From UHGV virus genome UHGV-0212646: DNA of 43,550 nucleotides; one strand, 5' to 3'. The first letter of the stretch is position 1, and every line of letters starts with the position of its first letter. The translations under genes and the position numbers were made by a program. This document shows positions 4,344-34,186 of the stretch, in pieces. Under the pieces are notes generated by a model, which was not told the origin of the DNA, made no database searches, and was given only the letters and a program-made list of their open reading frames with translations. Origin of the DNA: a virus.

Positions 4344-4487
4344 ATAATAGAGAAAAACCAGCCCCTGCGCCAACAGGAACGGCTTTAAATTAAAGAAAGT
4401 AATCGGAAAAGTAATGTATTGAATCGCCTCTGGCGTTTTAATAAAGTAAACCAACGATTAGTGTTTTTACAGAATGGTGGTGACCTA

Positions 4488-4724
4488 TTGGAAATACAAT
4501 ATTCTAAACAAGCAATCAAATTTTTAAAGAAACAAGACCTGCCGACCAGAAAGCGTATCATAACTGCGATCAATGCACTTCCTGCCGGAGATGTAAAATC
4601 TTTGCAAGGACGCTCTGGATACCGCCTCCGGATTGGCGACTATAGAGTAATTTTCGATAAAGAAGGAAATATTCTCTATATTGAAAAAATTGATAACCGC
4701 GGACAAGTTTATAAAGGAGTGTGA
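4488..4724 (+). CDS. type II toxin, RelE/ParE family
   Basis: GGTGGTGA SD, then TTG at 4488. Product MEIQYSKQAIKFLKKQ...SGYRLRIGDYRVIFDKEGNILYIEKIDNRGQVY matches RelE/ParE core motifs. Confidence 0.8.
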   Translation: MEIQYSKQAIKFLKKQDLPTRKRIITAINALPAGDVKSLQGRSGYRLRIGDYRVIFDKEGNILYIEKIDNRGQVYKGV

Positions 4725-5167: not shown

Positions 5168-6646
5168 ATGCCGCCATTATCCACCAGTAATTCACAGACT
5201 TTGGAGATCGGCGCCGCCTACATCCGCGTCAGCACCGACGATCAGACAGAGCTTTCCCCGGATGCCCAGCTGCGTGTCATTCTTGATGCCGCCAAAGCGG
5301 ACGGGTTCGTGATCCCTAAAGAATATATCTTTGAAGAGAAGAAAGGCATATCCGGCCGGAAGGCTGACAACCGCCCGGAGTTCCAGCGTATGATCGCTAT
5401 TGCCAAGTCTCAGAAACCCGCTCCCTTCAAACGGCTGTACCTCTGGAAGTTTTCCCGATTCGCCCGGAATCAGGAGGAAAGCACCTTCTACAAGGGGATC
5501 TTACGAAAAAAGTGCGGAATCGAGATCAAAAGCATATCAGAGCCCATTATGGACGGAATGTTCGGCCGACTGATTGAAACGATTATCGAATGGTTTGACG
5601 AATACTATTCTTTTAACCTGTCCGGGGAGGTCATGCGCGGCATGACAGAAAAAGCCCTCCGGGAAGGCTATCAGACCTCCCCTTCTCTGGGATACAAGGC
5701 CGCCGGCGAGGGCAAACCATTTCTCATTGACGAGATGACTTACCCGATTGTGGAGTATATCTTCCGTACCTATCACGATGGCCGGGATATGACTGCCACT
5801 GCAAGGGCCGCCAACGCCATGGGCTACCGAACCCGCCACGGCAATCTCTTTGATCGTCGGGCAGTTTACCGCATTTTAACGAACCGTTTTTACAATGGAG
5901 AGGTTGTCTGGAACGGGATCACCTTTCAGGGATCGCATGAAACCCGCCCCGCCGTAACCTCCATTTACGAGAACGTCCAAAATCGGATAACATCTGAATA
6001 CCGCCCCCTCAAGCGCCGCGAGGCCTCTGCTAACGCGCATTGGCTGTCAGGGCTTTTAACCTGCAGCGTCTGTGGCAGCAGTCTGGGCTTTAACCGCTCC
6101 AACAATCAGAAAAAGCGTCCTGACTTCTTTCAATGCTGGAAGTACGCCAAGGGCGTCCACCCTGGTTCCTGCTGCGTATCTGCCCGGATTGCAGAGCAAA
6201 CCGTGCTGAGTTCGTTGGAAAATGCTATGGGGCAGAACTATCTTGAGTATGAATATATCCCGAAAACAGCTGTGGAAACACACGGAGAGGAGCTGGCTTT
6301 AAAAGAGGCTTTGGATCGGATCGCCATCAAAGAGCAGCGCATCCGGGAGGCATATGAAAATGAAATTGATACCCTGGAAGAATATAAGCAAAACAAAATC
6401 CGTCTGAATGTCGAACGGGAGCAGCTGACCGCCGCACTGGAACAACTTCGTCAGAAGATCCAGCAGTCCACATCCGCGCCGCCCAGTCAGGCCGAGGTCA
6501 TGGCCAAAATCTCCTGTGTGTATCAGGTGCTTTCTGATCAGGAAGTCGATAACGAAACCAAAGCCAATGCCCTCCGAGCCATCTGTAAACAGATCGTTTT
6601 TGACCGTGAAACCAGACGTTTTATCTTTTATTACTACACATCATAA
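5168..6646 (+). CDS. int: large serine recombinase (phage integrase type)
   Basis: Resolvase catalytic N-terminal domain (AAYIRVSTDDQ...), recombinase domain, Cys-rich zinc ribbon (CSVCGSS...CWKYAKGVHPGSC), and a C-terminal coiled coil. AAGGAGA SD. Confidence 0.9.
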   Translation: MPPLSTSNSQTLEIGAAYIRVSTDDQTELSPDAQLRVILDAAKADGFVIPKEYIFEEKKGISGRKADNRPEFQRMIAIAKSQKPAPFKRLYLWKFSRFARNQEESTFYKGILRKKCGIEIKSISEPIMDGMFGRLIETIIEWFDEYYSFNLSGEVMRGMTEKALREGYQTSPSLGYKAAGEGKPFLIDEMTYPIVEYIFRTYHDGRDMTATARAANAMGYRTRHGNLFDRRAVYRILTNRFYNGEVVWNGITFQGSHETRPAVTSIYENVQNRITSEYRPLKRREASANAHWLSGLLTCSVCGSSLGFNRSNNQKKRPDFFQCWKYAKGVHPGSCCVSARIAEQTVLSSLENAMGQNYLEYEYIPKTAVETHGEELALKEALDRIAIKEQRIREAYENEIDTLEEYKQNKIRLNVEREQLTAALEQLRQKIQQSTSAPPSQAEVMAKISCVYQVLSDQEVDNETKANALRAICKQIVFDRETRRFIFYYYTS

Positions 6647-6728: not shown

Positions 6729-6757
6729 TTGCATTTAGGAATTGCGTATGATATAAT
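6729..6757 (+). promoter_or_regulatory. promoter TTGCAT-N17-TGaTATAAT for sRNA-A
   Basis: Near-consensus -35, 17-nt spacer, extended -10. Confidence 0.6.
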
Positions 6758-6764
6758 GCCTGTA

Positions 6765-6840
6765 GGCAATAAAGGATATAGTTGTTCCATAGTGAGCGAC
6801 AACAAAAAACCCGGAGGTGTGCAAGACCTTCGGGTTTTTC
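6765..6840 (+). ncRNA. candidate antitoxin sRNA-A (RNA II-like) of a par/Fst-like type I TA locus
   Basis: Runs from its own promoter to the shared bidirectional terminator. Carries the direct-repeat segment ataaaggatata...ttccatagt, which is complementary to the toxin start region. Confidence 0.5.
6810..6839. terminator. bidirectional intrinsic terminator shared by sRNA-A and toxin-A mRNA
   Basis: cccggagg-tgtgcaaga-ccttcggg with T-runs on both strands. The stem covaries with copy B. Confidence 0.7.
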
Positions 6841-6891
6841 TATTCCTATTTTTCGGAGTGGGAAGGCTTAACCCCACAGGCTAGTTACCGA

Positions 6892-6978
6892 TTACTTATC
6901 GCCGTTTAACCATTTGATGATGTAGTGGCAAGCTACACCAGCCGCAACAGCGACGATAAAGGATATAATAAATTCCAT
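6892..6978 (-). CDS. 28-aa hydrophobic peptide, Fst/Ldr-like type I toxin candidate (copy A)
   Basis: GGGAGGTG SD, 6-nt spacer, ATG. Product MEFIISFIVAVAAGVACHYIIKWLNGDK: a TM helix followed by a charged KWLNGDK tail. The 5'UTR contains CGCCTCCCT, which can pair with the SD. Confidence 0.6.
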   Translation of the reverse strand: MEFIISFIVAVAAGVACHYIIKWLNGDK

Positions 6979-7212
6979 AGTAAGCACCTCCCTTCCTTAC
7001 CAGTATAGGAGGCGGTAACATCAGCATTATAGCACACTCATATCATCTCTGCTACTTCTTTTTCGACAATCTCCCCTATTTTTTACTTTCCCAGCCCCGG
7101 CCACAGCAGCGCCCCGTCCTGACTGGGCGTCAGTCTAACAGAATAAATCGACATCTAGATTCAAAGGATAACAATACATTCTTCCTTCTGTGGCGGAAGC
7201 TCCCACAGTACC

Positions 7213-7875
7213 TTAACCCGCCAGCATCTTCGTCGAGTTCTCCTGGATGAATCCCTTGATCTGGTCATATCCCCAACCGCAGCTTATAAGGCTACTCACC
7301 AGCATCTCCATGGATTCAATCTGTTTCAGTTCATCCGCTGTCACATATTCCCGAATACTTTCTTTCCTCTTCACCCCATACTGCTCCTGCAGTTCCTTCA
7401 TGGTCTTTCCGAAGATGGTCTTGTAGATAAGCTTGGTGTAATTGGGATACATGAATTTCTTATGGGGACTGTCAGTCACTTTCATTTTTATGGTATCGGT
7501 CAGGATATGGCGGACAATAATTCCCTTGTCCCTTTCAATCTGCCACTGTTGCCGTTCTGTATAGATTCTCTTGAGTTCTTTTTCCATAGCATTGAAAGCT
7601 TTGATATAGTCCAGTTTCCATCTTAAAGCTTTCTCGCCTGTAAATCCCATAGCAAGTAATGAAAATCCATCTCTGTCCATTTCATACATAGGATATTCTT
7701 TTCCACGGTTTTTGTATGTAGTCAGGGTGAAAAAACTGGCTGCCGAATTTTCGGCCGTGAGATTTCTAATAGCGTCCAATACATGCCTGTGTTCTTTCTC
7801 AAAATGTTCTGCCACTTTAAGGCTTGTGGTAATCAATCTTTCTTCATATCTTTTCCCGGTAATTTCTACTAACAT
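7213..7875 (-). CDS. phage regulatory protein Rha
   Basis: N-terminus TSLKVAEHFEKEHRHVLDAIRNL is the Rha family signature. GGAAGGA SD. Confidence 0.8.
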   Translation of the reverse strand: MLVEITGKRYEERLITTSLKVAEHFEKEHRHVLDAIRNLTAENSAASFFTLTTYKNRGKEYPMYEMDRDGFSLLAMGFTGEKALRWKLDYIKAFNAMEKELKRIYTERQQWQIERDKGIIVRHILTDTIKMKVTDSPHKKFMYPNYTKLIYKTIFGKTMKELQEQYGVKRKESIREYVTADELKQIESMEMLVSSLISCGWGYDQIKGFIQENSTKMLAG

Positions 7876-7971
7876 AAACTACATCCTTCCTATGCGTTTA
7901 TTTTTCGTACAATAAAAGCCCTGGGAAACATCCCAAGGCTGAACATTCCATATTCACTTGTTTGATCCGGT

Positions 7972-8763
7972 TTAAAACTCGCCCGGCCCCTGTACCCCGC
8001 TGGCGTCAGTTACATACAAGGCGCATTCCAACGGGTGGCCTGCCGCCGGCTCAAAGTAATACCATTTCCCATCGATCTGATGCCAGTCCGTTAATGCGTA
8101 GCCATCCTGGTTAAAATAATACTTGTGATGGTTAATCACCTGCCAGCAGGACTTATAATAGGTGTGGGGCGTGTCTGCGTACCACCATCCGTTACTGTCA
8201 TGGTGCCAGCCTAATACGTATTCTGATTGGCTGACAATCGACCAGTCCGGCAGCCCGTAGCCAAGAATTTTCCCATAAGACCGGCTGTAAGCCTTCCGGC
8301 ACACCCCGCCGCCGTTTTCAATCACACCGGATGCACCGGACGTATTGCCCTCAATGGTCTTGATCCGCGTTGCCGTCACCTCTGTAACGATCCCTGTATG
8401 ATAGGCTCTCTGGCCGTTGGTAAAGAAGATCACTGCCCCAGGCTCCGGCACCGCGGCCCACCGGCCTGCCTTTTTAAACTGGTTGACCCCTGTGGGGCAA
8501 TAATGGTACAGGCTGCCTCCCAGAAGTTTCTTAGCCTCCTCAAGCCCAAATGCCTGCACAAATACCTCTGATACGAACATGGCGCACCAGGGCTGGGCCT
8601 GCAGGTTCTGACCGGTATGTATCTTATAGTCCCTGGCAAAGCAGGTGAAATTGCCGCTGCCGGCATTGGCCGTAAAATCATCCAGCTGGGCGTTGCTTTT
8701 CTTTTCCAGATAGCCGTCCCAATGGGCGGTCTGATCAATGAGTTTCTTTACTGCGTTTTCCAT
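7972..8763 (-). CDS. endolysin: CHAP/NlpC-P60-type peptidase domain plus C-terminal cell-wall-binding (choline-binding-type) repeats
   Basis: ATG at 8763 follows a GGAGG SD. Catalytic Cys (PWCAMFVSE) and His (AYHTGIV). Repeats GWHHDSNGWWY..., KYYFNQDGYALTDWHQIDGKWYYF. Confidence 0.8.
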   Translation of the reverse strand: MENAVKKLIDQTAHWDGYLEKKSNAQLDDFTANAGSGNFTCFARDYKIHTGQNLQAQPWCAMFVSEVFVQAFGLEEAKKLLGGSLYHYCPTGVNQFKKAGRWAAVPEPGAVIFFTNGQRAYHTGIVTEVTATRIKTIEGNTSGASGVIENGGGVCRKAYSRSYGKILGYGLPDWSIVSQSEYVLGWHHDSNGWWYADTPHTYYKSCWQVINHHKYYFNQDGYALTDWHQIDGKWYYFEPAAGHPLECALYVTDASGVQGPGEF

Positions 8764-8826
8764 ATGTCTTTGCCTCCAAATAAAAAAGCCCGGTACAAAA
8801 CCGGACAAAAATCATTTTCAGGTATC

Positions 8827-8855
8827 TTGCTTTTAAAATCTGCATATGCTATAAT
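8827..8855 (+). promoter_or_regulatory. promoter TTGCTT-N17-TGcTATAAT for sRNA-B
   Basis: Same architecture as the copy A promoter. Confidence 0.6.
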
Positions 8856-8861
8856 GCCAGT

Positions 8862-8937
8862 AGGCTAAACGATAAAAGTTGTCCATTTCAGACAGCAAAA
8901 ATGAAAACCCCAAGGACCGCAATTCCTTGGGGTTTTC
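8862..8937 (+). ncRNA. candidate antitoxin sRNA-B
   Basis: Carries the direct repeat aaacgataaaagttgtccatttcagaca, whose near copy (rc) spans the SD/start of toxin-B. Ends at the shared terminator. Confidence 0.5.
8908..8936. terminator. bidirectional terminator, copy B
   Basis: ccccaagg-accgcaatt-ccttgggg plus T-run. Two compensatory base-pair changes relative to copy A. Confidence 0.7.
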
Positions 8938-8980
8938 TATTCCGTTTTTATGGTGGCTTAGACCATAGGCTGGTTACCGA

Positions 8981-9067
8981 CTATTTGTCGCCGTCCAACC
9001 ATTTGTTGATGAGGTGGCTAACCACACCAGCCGCAACGGCAACAATAAACGATAAAAGTGTATCCAA
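8981..9067 (-). CDS. 28-aa hydrophobic peptide, Fst/Ldr-like type I toxin candidate (copy B)
   Basis: GGGAGGTG SD, 6-nt spacer, TTG. Product MDTLLSFIVAVAAGVVSHLINKWLDGDK. Confidence 0.55.
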   Translation of the reverse strand: MDTLLSFIVAVAAGVVSHLINKWLDGDK

Positions 9068-9183
9068 TTCAGACACCTCCCTTCTGTCACCAGATTCGGA
9101 GGCGGTAACGTTAGCATTATAGCACAGCTGCAGTTATGCCGCAATCAAAATATAGACCTCAGGAATCCCCTGGGGCCTGTCTG

Positions 9184-9200
9184 CGTTGCGACGTCGCACG
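9184..9200. repeat. GTTGCGACGTCGCAC palindromic motif (copy 1 of 2; second copy at 27306-27322)
   Basis: Identical 15-17-nt palindrome seen in two late-region intergenic gaps. Confidence 0.4.
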
Positions 9201-9203
9201 ACT

Positions 9204-9428
9204 CTACTCCTGACTGTCATCTACACCGTTGTTATTACGATCAGATGGGCCACCTACGCCGCTCTGATGCTTGTCTGGATGCGGTACATCACATGGTGCA
9301 TCATGCAGATATGGGGTCGGCTCCTTAGGCTGCAGATCTGGCCCTGCGTTTACATAGCCTCCCATTCCAGGGATTTTATCCTGATGTTTTCCTGTTAATT
9401 TTGCCATAAATTTTGTCCTCTCTTTCAT
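9204..9428 (-). CDS. hypothetical Gly/Pro/Asp-rich hydrophilic protein (67-74 aa), doubtful
   Basis: Weak SD. Sits between the holin and toxin-B. The overlapping + ORF 9186..9398 is Trp-rich and unlikely to be real. Confidence 0.25.
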   Translation of the reverse strand: MKERTKFMAKLTGKHQDKIPGMGGYVNAGPDLQPKEPTPYLHDAPCDVPHPDKHQSGVGGPSDRNNNGVDDSQE

Positions 9429-9499: not shown

Positions 9500-9679
9500 C
9501 TATTTCTGTCTGCTTTTCTCTGTTTGAACGCCAAAGTAGAACCCCACAATCATCGTGAAGATTGTAAGGTATTCCTGCCCGGAAATTTCCCCAGTGCAGG
9601 TCAGACCCACGAATCCCGCAGTCAGCGCCAGAGTCATGATCGACTTAACATCGATCAGCTTAGCCAGTTTCTCTTTCAT
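9500..9679 (-). CDS. holin (59 aa, two TM helices)
   Basis: GGAGGTG SD, 6-nt spacer, ATG at 9679. Product MKEKLAKLIDVKSIMTLALTAGFVGLTCTGEISGQEYLTIFTMIVGFYFGVQTEKSRQK. Below the ORF-track length cutoff. Confidence 0.7.
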   Translation of the reverse strand: MKEKLAKLIDVKSIMTLALTAGFVGLTCTGEISGQEYLTIFTMIVGFYFGVQTEKSRQK

Positions 9680-9694
9680 TTATGTCACCTCCTT

Positions 9695-9976
9695 TCAAAA
9701 AAGCATTGAGGCCGCCGCACTCACGACCGCCCCAATCAACGCCCCGATTAGCATTTCCCACTGCCGCCCCGGCTTGGCTTTCAGTTCCGTCACATCGTCT
9801 GTCAGCTGCCGGATGGAGCTATTCATGTGCTTAATCTCCTCCGTCTGCCGGGCCATCTCCAAAGCAAGTGTGTGTACGGCATCCACAATCTTCCCTACAC
9901 TGTCCATGCGATGTTTCAAAGATGCTATTTCATGCTTATAGCCTTCGAGCACTACCACAATTTCTTCATCCGTCAT
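9695..9976 (-). CDS. XhlA-like hemolysin/holin-associated protein
   Basis: Coiled-coil N-terminus plus C-terminal TM (MLIGALIGAVVSAAASMLF). Position matches PBSX xhlA. Confidence 0.65.
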   Translation of the reverse strand: MTDEEIVVVLEGYKHEIASLKHRMDSVGKIVDAVHTLALEMARQTEEIKHMNSSIRQLTDDVTELKAKPGRQWEMLIGALIGAVVSAAASMLF

Positions 9977-27305: not shown

Positions 27306-27322
27306 TGTTGCGACGTCGCACA
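27306..27322. repeat. GTTGCGACGTCGCAC palindromic motif (copy 2)
   Basis: Identical to 9184-9200. Lies in the 480-bp noncoding gap between the minor-head and scaffold genes. Confidence 0.4.
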
Positions 27323-34078: not shown

Positions 34079-34114
34079 GGAACGTCTGGGTGGAGATCCC
34101 TAAACCAGGCTAAC

Positions 34115-34186
34115 GGATCCTACAGGAATCGAACCTGTGACACGGTGGTTAACAGCCACCTGCTCTGCCAGCTGAGCTAAGGATCC
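34115..34186 (-). tRNA. tRNA-Asn (anticodon GTT), phage-encoded, no encoded CCA
   Basis: Cloverleaf hand-folded: acceptor GGATCCT/AGGATCC, D-stem GCTC/GAGC, anticodon stem GGTGG/CCACC with loop CTGTTAA, T-loop TTCGATT. Confidence 0.8.

Follow-up and report, generated by a model that had tools for sequence, protein, structure and literature searches.

The window analysed in this work is the virus genome UHGV-0212646, a stretch of 43,550 nt, and all positions given below refer to this whole stretch. We read both strands between 8400 and 9600 and located each motif exactly. The region 8827-9144 holds a compact cassette, in the following called copy B, with components on both strands: two convergent extended -10 promoters, a common bidirectional terminator and an open reading frame (ORF) of 28 codons which starts with TTG. 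The original prediction, made from the letters alone, saw here a second and diverged type I toxin–antitoxin (TA) locus of the par/Fst type beside an endolysin gene. We come to the same view, as the architecture of par is present and is conserved with compensatory changes in about 190 loci. Copy B is very probably an autonomous par/Fst-like type I TA cassette, which forms an optional prophage insert (a 'moron') between holin and endolysin.

The promoter of the small RNA (sRNA) occupies 8827..8855 on the plus strand and consists of the -35 hexamer TTGCTT (8827-8832), a spacer of 17 nt and the extended -10 box TGcTATAAT (8847-8855). The toxin promoter at 9116..9144 on the minus strand is built in the same way from TTGCGG (9144-9139), 17 nt and again TGcTATAAT (9124-9116). 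The original prediction had described the first in full and, of the second, the TGcTATAAT box. In about 50 related loci the -10 block of the sRNA promoter, TATGCTATAATGCC, is nearly invariant, and a TG-N-TATAAT/TATACT box is kept in the relatives at the position of the toxin promoter. The sequence TGCTATAAT occurs three times in the 43.5 kb where 0.43 occurrences are expected, and all three are predicted promoters of copy B or of its paralogue, copy A. A generic promoter scan of the window lists neither promoter of the cassette because each -35 hexamer matches TTGACA at only three of six positions. The case for both promoters as predicted from the DNA rests on the extended -10 boxes and on their conservation in the relatives.

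Both transcripts would end at the same structure, a bidirectional intrinsic terminator at 8903..8937 with a stem of 14 bp, seven G-C pairs and T-runs on either strand. This terminator, which had also been foreseen, has a stem that covaries in the relatives. Judging by the positions of the -10 box (for the start) and the terminator (for the end), we predict an antitoxin sRNA-B similar to RNA II at 8862..8945 on the plus strand. A length of 78-88 nt is more likely than the 75 nt or so proposed originally. The sRNA folds with -29.7 kcal/mol (z = -5.5) into an open 5′ targeting region followed by the terminator hairpin, and from about 8897 to 8945 it overlaps with the toxin mRNA and is fully complementary to it. 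A search of Rfam finds no family for the sRNA, and the matches of His_leader and rli40 to the terminator hairpin are at chance level. At gathering thresholds Rfam returns only tRNA for the whole window; a tRNA gene (66.6 bits) lies at 34114-34186 on the minus strand inside the apparent phage region.

The toxin mRNA, similar to RNA I, is predicted to run on the minus strand over 8897..9109 and thus from the sequence GUUACCG to the terminator (about 213 nt). It folds with -77.5 kcal/mol (z = -4.1). Near its 5′ end a stem-loop at 9074..9104 sequesters the Shine-Dalgarno (SD) sequence: in the minimum-energy fold the anti-SD CGCCUCC (CGCCTCC in the DNA, 9104-9098) is paired with the SD GGGAGGTG (9081-9074; as helix arm in the RNA GGGAGGUG), just as had been claimed from the letters. 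After the SD follow 6 nt and then the TTG codon at 9067-9065. The toxin ORF (8981..9067) codes for a peptide of 28 residues, (M)DTLLSFIVAVAAGVVSHLINKWLDGDK, and ends with the stop codon at 8983-8981, so that start, spacing and length of the peptide agree with the original prediction. Residues 4-21 of the peptide are hydrophobic and the C-terminus reads KWLDGDK. A long-range helix (inverted repeat I3) can form between GUUACCG at the extreme 5′ end (9109-9103) and CGGUAAC directly after the stop codon (8973..8979).

Two direct repeats connect both RNAs. On the plus strand the sRNA carries its copies at 8866..8894 (repeat families D1 and D2), and the target sites on the minus strand are found at 9046..9075 of the toxin gene. 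The first repeat, 8866-8879, is identical to DRa at 9046-9059 in codons 3-7 (14/14), and the second, 8882-8894, matches DRb at 9063-9075 with 12 of 13 positions. The TTG and the final two bases of the SD, at its 3′ end, fall within DRb. Since sRNA and toxin mRNA are transcribed from opposite strands, the repeats render the sRNA 5′ end complementary to the TTG, to the last SD bases and to codons 3-7. The duplex of sRNA-B with the start region has a calculated energy of -42.2 kcal/mol, compared with -14.6 +/- 3.2 kcal/mol for 500 shuffles.

Gut phages, small plasmids and genomes of Lachnospiraceae yielded about 190 related loci. With a strict DNA pattern, namely KWL(D/N)G followed by a stop codon and GGTARYYAGCCT, 67 viral contigs were matched as well as at least 120 stretches in species genomes, nearly all from Lachnospiraceae or other gut Clostridia and many on contigs of 4-7 kb. 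A blastn search of plasmids returned five loci (M. gnavus, Waltera, Butyricicoccus, a C. perfringens plasmid and an uncultured 3.7-kb plasmid), all of them unannotated there. The cassette occurs alone on plasmids of 3.7-7 kb. Among the INPHARED phages blastn with the locus gave no match, and tblastn with the peptide gave only weak matches in small 'bajarodino virus' and uncultured records. A whole-locus alignment reveals that every intact locus keeps both promoters, the SD stem, the ORF, the element after the stop codon, the terminator and the downstream repeat. The pattern of the cassette also appears in a metagenome-assembled genome of Bacteroides thetaiotaomicron (L128) and on a 542-bp contig of Streptomyces cinnamoneus (L147). 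These two are most likely artefacts of binning or contamination and not real hosts.

We computed a consensus structure with RNAalifold from 24 diverse toxin mRNAs. It contains the helix between the 5′ end and the post-stop element, the helix between anti-SD and SD, a third and long helix within the coding sequence, and the terminator; 19 of its 46 pairs show compensatory changes. In the first of these helices a U-A pair is changed to C-G in three of the 24 sequences, and in the anti-SD/SD helix a compensatory change from C-G to U-A is found in eight. For the intermolecular pairing, the start region of each of 24 loci was joined to the 5′ end of its own sRNA, the joined sequences were aligned with MAFFT and the pairing was taken as in copy B. 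In the cognate register 76% of the cells are paired, as against 44-51% when the partners are slid by 1-3 columns; the cells with double changes number 111 and fall to 18-50 for the slid partners. None of 500 shuffles equals the observed values. A test which does not depend on an alignment gives the same picture for 32 distinct loci: the mean duplex energy is -39.8 kcal/mol for cognate and -20.8 kcal/mol for non-cognate pairs, and in 28 of the 32 loci the best target of the sRNA is its own mRNA.

This specificity can also be seen within the window. The paralogous copy A (6729..7040, minus strand) codes for the peptide MEFIISFIVAVAAGVACHYIIKWLNGDK, starts with ATG and scores 209 bits with our own covariance model R1. 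It is found 2.1 kb from copy B, beyond the endolysin and a Rha gene, and adjoins a recombinase. Its direct repeats match with 12/12 and 12/13 positions. The original claim that the repeat of copy B is longer is thus correct, but by 2 nt only. The duplex of sRNA-B reaches -42.2 kcal/mol with toxin-B and -15.9 kcal/mol with toxin-A, and that of sRNA-A -42.5 kcal/mol with toxin-A and -21.5 kcal/mol with toxin-B. As the non-cognate duplexes are weak, we predict that both copies do not cross-talk and, since the repeats have diverged between them, that each sRNA acts on its own toxin alone. A lack of cross-talk has been demonstrated experimentally between par of pAD1 and the paralogue on the chromosome (PMC7472228).

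Is the ORF really translated? Its very small size and TTG start may be held against this, as may the conserved helices within the coding region and the fact that no protein family model matches the peptide. One could therefore argue that the region is made up of RNA structures only, that is, of a terminator or attenuator between holin and endolysin and of an antisense RNA. We regard this as highly improbable, since the ORF is under purifying selection that is specific for the frame: among 33 distinct coding sequences pN/pS (the ratio of nonsynonymous to synonymous polymorphism) is 0.39 in frame and 1.07 and 1.26 out of frame. Of 50 full-length loci, 48 retain the ORF of 28 codons, and only two viral or plasmid loci are visibly degraded with a disrupted ORF. 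In these 48 loci the start codon is found at the same codon (20 ATG, 18 GTG and 10 TTG) with an SD 5-9 nt upstream. The TTG of copy B is supported because copy A has ATG at this place and because the three start codons alternate in the 48 relatives. K22, W23, L24 and G26 are invariant in 26 family peptides. The profile similarity to Fst toxins described below also speaks for a peptide. These comparative data are evolutionary and indirect evidence for translation of the ORF. Gene callers skip the 28-codon ORF or call a spurious version of 45-77 amino acids which runs through the SD, as in the 11 unannotated over-extended ORFs, with no Pfam domain, that a protein search with an in-frame extension of 50 codons returned.

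At the level of RNA a link leads to streptococci. The model of the Rfam family RF02442 (SpF66) matches the toxin mRNA of copy B over its full length, with positions 1-239 on 9109-8893 (40.9 bits; E = 2.4e-8 within the region, 1.9e-6 over the whole window); copy A is absent from the matches of this model at E <= 0.01. Our own covariance model of the clostridial family gives 219 bits for the copy B mRNA. The consensus of SpF66 includes an SD, an AUG start and an ORF whose peptide ends in CKWLDGKE. A locus on the satellite prophage Javan542 of S. sanguinis, which scores 102.9 bits with SpF66 and adjoins an integrase, has a convergent TGATATAAT sRNA promoter, repeats over the start codon and a terminator as in the cassette of the window. 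Its peptide has 37 residues and reads ...EVIAG...CKWLDSKEDDRD. The architecture of this locus together with the ORF in the consensus leads us to conclude that SpF66 is a par-like toxin mRNA of prophage-like elements in streptococci. In the opposite direction our clostridial model matches the Javan542 locus with 42.5 bits (E = 3e-11), and hence the RNA-level link between the clostridial family and SpF66 is reciprocal. SpF66 and the cassette of the window have in common the 5′ GUUACCG, the SD stem, an arm similar to CGGUAAC after the stop codon and the terminator. The ends of the peptides are alike as well, with ...CKWLDGKE or ...CKWLDSKEDDRD for SpF66 and ...NKWLDGDK for copy B. In length and motif the peptides differ, as the streptococcal ones have 32-37 amino acids and D/ExxxG and that of copy B has 28 amino acids and AxxxG. 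For RF02442 and the locus L193 (1141-1381) we observe a conserved ORF of 32-37 codons and a convergent antisense sRNA gene downstream; Rfam lists the family as an sRNA, and its description is silent on both. We found no literature on SpF66 as an RNA or on the KWLDG motif.

The archetype of such systems is par of plasmid pAD1, which is characterized by convergent promoters, a common bidirectional terminator, two direct repeats, an SD stem-loop and an upstream helix at the 5′ end (Weaver 2020, PMC7472228). Copy B shares with it the convergent promoters and the common terminator, DRa and DRb over the SD and the start codon, the SD stem-loop and the helix between the 5′ end and the sequence after the stop codon. 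An mRNA of about 210 nt, an sRNA of 65-85 nt and a start codon other than ATG are common to both as well. A par locus of E. faecalis (L194), annotated as 'Fst family toxin', has the same layout as copy B, including the pairing of the 5′ end with the post-stop sequence and a CGCCUC/GGAGGUG stem. Like Fst, the peptide of copy B has about 30 residues, one transmembrane helix, a charged tail and a glycine that precedes the W/V-L position by eight residues. Unlike par of pAD1, copy B has AxxxG instead of PxxxG, no YUNR motif and a short and nearly neutral tail (DGDK), and the cassette of the window resides in Clostridia hosts and in phage lysis modules.

A profile comparison connects the peptides over this distance. 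With hhalign, 26 family peptides were aligned to Fst, PepA1, PepA2 and LdrD with a probability of 84.7% (E = 6.7e-6) over 26 ungapped columns; G14 is aligned with the glycine of Fst, AVAAG with PxxxG and W23 with the tryptophan that marks the Fst/Ldr superfamily. Of the four references, Fst, PepA1 and PepA2 pass NF033608, and LdrD reaches only 13.8 bits. As controls for NF033608, Fst scores 34.7, PepA1 58.3, PepA2 55.8 and the SpF66 consensus 18.9 bits. With the Pfam model Fst_toxin the SpF66 consensus peptide obtains 14.9 bits, and even Fst and PepA1 remain under the gathering threshold. PHROGs gave nothing usable for the peptides of the window. The staphylococcal systems SprA1/SprA1AS and SprA2/SprA2AS (S. 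aureus; toxins PepA1 and PepA2) show the same order of xxxG, W-L and charged tail as the window family, and their antisense RNAs overlap at the 3′ end and are also aimed at the translation start. Their toxins differ by PxxxGC or SxxxGC, by a tail rich in Arg and Lys and by NF033608 scores of 56-58 bits, whereas the window peptides are not recognised. The 'Fst-like' sequence of C. bolteae reported by Fozo et al. 2010 may be a member of the window clade. As judged from these comparisons, the clade of copy B is sister to the SpF66 loci of streptococci and only distantly related to Fst.

Other type I systems are more remote. The hok/sok systems are also type I TAs with a small membrane peptide, an mRNA closed by long-range pairing of 5′ and 3′ end and occurrence on prophages (hokW-sokW, Sp5). 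They have a different toxin family, an sRNA antisense to the 5′ leader, the mok coupling and activation by 3′ processing, none of which is seen in the window. In B. subtilis bsrG/SR4 and txpA/RatA are type I TAs of prophages or prophage-like elements, and no direct repeats are known in the prophage type I TAs of this organism through which an sRNA overlapping at the 3′ end would pair with SD and start codon. The toxins of C. difficile and B. subtilis are unrelated to the window peptide or similar in composition only. In C. difficile, CD0956.2-RCd10 and others are likewise type I TAs of prophages or prophage-like elements. Such systems of Firmicutes, sometimes several per prophage, are proposed or shown to stabilise these elements (PMC6563280); for C. 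difficile, repeats that pair a 3′-overlapping sRNA with SD and start codon are not described in that work.

For the C. difficile prophage toxins a family model, NF047374, is available, and one may ask whether the peptide belongs there and not to Fst/par. Clostridia as host class and the prophage setting are common to both (PMC6563280), and five plasmid relatives are weak matches with 12.9-21.3 bits (best E = 2.7e-4). These scores are far under the cut-off of 60 bits of the 51-position model and involve the hydrophobic stretch only, copies A and B have no match at all, and the toxins of C. difficile are longer (34-59 amino acids) and have lysine-rich tails (PMC6563280). The RNA-level link to the streptococcal SpF66 loci and the profile-level link to the Fst-family toxins point elsewhere. 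We therefore consider this assignment very unlikely and have rejected NF047374.

Copy B is situated in the lysis/accessory end of the prophage. On the minus strand the order of lysis genes begins with an XhlA-like ORF (9695-9976), followed by a small holin-like ORF with two helices (9500-9679) and a hydrophilic ORF of 74 codons (9204-9428), which has no match in Pfam or PHROG and lies between the holin-like gene and copy B. In L017, a phage with a copy-B-like cassette, the ORF at the same position begins with MKVRTKIMA, compared with MKERTKFMA at 9204-9428. On the other side of the cassette is the endolysin gene (7972..8763, minus strand), which is co-oriented with the toxin gene and codes for a protein with CHAP domain and choline-binding repeats (Pfam CHAP and Choline_bind). 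Downstream of the endolysin and before copy A follows a Rha regulator (7213-7875, minus strand), and a large serine recombinase (5168-6646, plus strand) lies beyond copy A. A contig of Enterocloster alcoholdehydrogenati C5-48 (L091) is 98% identical over copies A and B and the endolysin and is devoid of the Rha gene (7173-7962 compared). A plus-strand ORF at 4419-4724, which carries the ParE domain of a type II TA toxin (Pfam E = 2.5e-6), is found just beyond the prophage on its recombinase side. In two related phages (L196 and L200) an ORF of 185-209 codons (MQLPQTVEVKEIRVL...) is found between TA cassette and endolysin.

From the -35 hexamer of the sRNA promoter to the ATG of the endolysin (8763) there are 63 nt, and both are divergent, in agreement with the distance of about 60 bp and the orientation stated originally. 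The further claim that the sRNA is transcribed head-to-head with a lysis promoter region is not supported, as we searched this gap for an endolysin promoter and found none that is recognisable. The gap contains the SD of the endolysin and, directly upstream of it, a terminator-like hairpin with T-run (8788..8806, minus strand), which is the second minus-strand terminator after the toxin promoter. In phage L017 the corresponding stretch reads ...CCCGGTTTTGTACCGG. The endolysin gene apparently lacks a separate promoter and would thus depend on read-through or antitermination for its expression.

The neighbourhood of copy B is not an isolated case. In 52 of 195 loci an endolysin catalytic domain is encoded within 3 kb (23 GH24 lysozymes, 8 CHAP and 21 peptidase M15), and in all 52 it is on the strand of the toxin. 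The endolysin is downstream of the toxin gene in 38 of these loci (median 269 nt, start to start) and upstream in 14, an arrangement also seen for copy A. On the upstream side the distance from the end of the holin gene to the cassette is about 75 nt, and at least three kinds of holin are found there. Within the GH24 group the distance from the sRNA -35 to the endolysin start is only 24-28 nt. Among phages with GH24 endolysins at least 77% identical, the cassette immediately precedes the endolysin in some; others lack it and have the same holin 50-82 nt from the endolysin. An aligned pair shows a clean insertion of about 330 nt that begins with the toxin -35, ends shortly after the sRNA -35 and is flanked by a conserved palindrome and the SD of the endolysin. 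The endolysins of the phages with and without cassette match the same query at 90-91% identity. We conclude from this clean presence and absence and from the cassette's own promoters and terminator that it is a discrete, optional and self-contained module, which is the classical picture of a moron. The recurrent adjacency to the endolysin is an interesting and unexplained habit.

A perfect palindrome of 12 nt, TGCGACGTCGCA, is found in the window at 9187-9198, about 45 nt upstream of the -35 hexamer of toxin-B, and once more at 27309-27320 (0.04 occurrences expected). It is present in 71 of 272 fetched loci. In related phages it is placed between holin and endolysin with or without the cassette, and where the cassette is missing about 17 nt separate its end from the start codon of the endolysin. 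Because it is present regardless of the cassette, the palindrome is part of the phage backbone. It could serve as an operator for a protein, or form a small hairpin in the RNA of the late/lysis transcript.

The association with endolysins raises the question whether the cassette functions within the lysis module, instead of or besides serving addiction. In a lysogen the sRNA and the terminators would silence the toxin and perhaps also read-through into the endolysin gene. After induction, sense transcription from upstream of the holin would collide with the fully complementary sRNA; this late read-through would titrate the sRNA, and the peptide would be made together with the holin and make lysis faster or more certain. 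Several observations fit: the co-orientation with the endolysins within 3 kb is without exception and spans three unrelated catalytic types (GH24, CHAP and M15), in most of these loci the endolysin is downstream, holins of several types precede the cassette, and no promoter-like site separates cassette and endolysin in the window. In the GH24 group endolysin transcription must cross the cassette because the gap is so short. There is also a precedent, as hokW-sokW of the E. coli O157 prophage Sp5 has been reported to assist phage-mediated lysis (PMC8621323). However, small plasmids that have no lysis genes carry the cassette by itself, and phages with related holin and endolysin (83-92% with the same query) have no cassette and a holin-endolysin distance of 50-82 nt; the cassette is therefore dispensable for lysis. 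Copy A, moreover, is downstream of the endolysin beside the recombinase, and morons are usually co-oriented with late genes. On balance we think that a function in lysis is unlikely. It also seems doubtful to us that the cassette is a recurrent lysis-module add-on of Lachnospiraceae phages, in which sRNA and terminators would lock the toxin and a leaky endolysin in lysogeny until induction flips the module. If true, a membrane peptide independent of the holin would aid lysis, and the role of hokW-sokW would be extended to Gram-positive Fst-like systems.

A type I TA could also protect the lysogen, by abortive infection, superinfection exclusion or a stress response, and not stabilise the element which carries it. 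A moron-like position with own promoters and terminator would suit such a role, two insulated copies are found in one prophage, and chromosomal loci of the Fst family are possibly linked to stress (PMC7472228). Nothing in the sequence ties the cassette to the sensing of infection, though, and it is frequent on very small plasmids, for which post-segregational killing is the best fit. We consider a protective role to be rather improbable.

We therefore return to the autonomous par/Fst-like TA cassette and suggest that it operates in the following way. The constitutive extended -10 promoter would give rise to the toxin mRNA of about 213 nt. Its extreme 5′ end would pair with the bases after the stop codon, which presumably protects the RNA, and as the SD is locked by the upstream CGCCUCC the free mRNA would be translated poorly. 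From the convergent promoter an sRNA of about 80 nt would be made, overlapping with the 3′ part of the mRNA across the common terminator. With the two direct repeats its 5′ end could then pair with SD, TTG and codons 3-7, and the entry of the ribosome would be blocked. Should the sRNA disappear sooner than the mRNA, either because the element is lost or because the sRNA promoter is shut off, the peptide of 28 residues would be made. With its single transmembrane helix followed by KWLDGDK it could insert into the membrane and lead to arrest or death of the cell. Loss of the prophage or plasmid would thereby be penalised. The discrete nature of the module and its solo occurrence on tiny plasmids make a role in addiction or stabilisation the best fit. 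Sequence and comparison supply the parts of this scheme, the covariation of its three RNA interactions and the selection on the ORF, and likewise the cognate specificity and the presence/absence pattern. The block of translation, the relative stabilities of the RNAs, the toxicity at the membrane and the post-segregational killing we infer from the literature on par, SprA1 and Fst-Sm (PMC7472228).

Several points weigh against this interpretation. The -35 hexamers of both promoters are weak. The terminator loop of copy B (AUUGCGG) has on neither RNA a YUNR motif, the U-turn with which the contact between the two RNAs begins in par, and in the mRNA terminator loop of the relatives YUNR is found in only 11 of 30 distinct sequences and hence is not conserved. 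Both peptides of the window have AVAAG, that is AxxxG, where Fst toxins have [P/D/S/T]xxxG, and the Pro and Gly of the latter motif are essential in Fst (PMC7472228). Of 29 family peptides 25 have retained Gly14, and the first residue of the motif is alanine in 18 of the 29, serine in 6 and threonine in 5. Neither Pfam Fst_toxin (PF13955) nor NCBIfam NF033608 matches either peptide at E <= 10, and a search of the PDB sequences with the family profile finds neither Fst nor PepA1 but chance matches to transmembrane segments only. The score with SpF66 is 1.1 bits under the gathering threshold of 42, a value which indicates a clade that is related but distinct. On canonical par RNA I our own model reaches only 17.7 bits, a level also reached by terminators alone. 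The Rfam model RefB11 behaves similarly, with 53.6 bits on the toxin-mRNA stretch of E. faecalis par and 17.5 bits on the window. As these low scores are at the level of a terminator, we do not claim homology to par at the nucleotide level. Finally, the strict co-orientation with and adjacency to the endolysin (52/52) hints at more than stabilisation.

The mechanism as such is unsurprising. What might be useful is the size of the overlooked clade, the orthogonal pairs of sRNA and toxin and the synteny of holin, cassette and endolysin. The clean presence or absence between holin and endolysin makes an effect on prophage stability or on lysis easy to test, and the Rfam entry 'Streptococcus sRNA SpF66' is shown to be a toxin mRNA.

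In summary, we find a large Fst/par-like clade in phages, plasmids and chromosomes of the Lachnospiraceae that are abundant in the human gut. The clade is unannotated in every record checked, and its peptide is missed by all Pfam, NCBIfam and PHROG models. It constitutes a natural library of sRNA/mRNA pairs with matched specificity, which could be tried as orthogonal regulators or as counter-selection markers in Clostridia.

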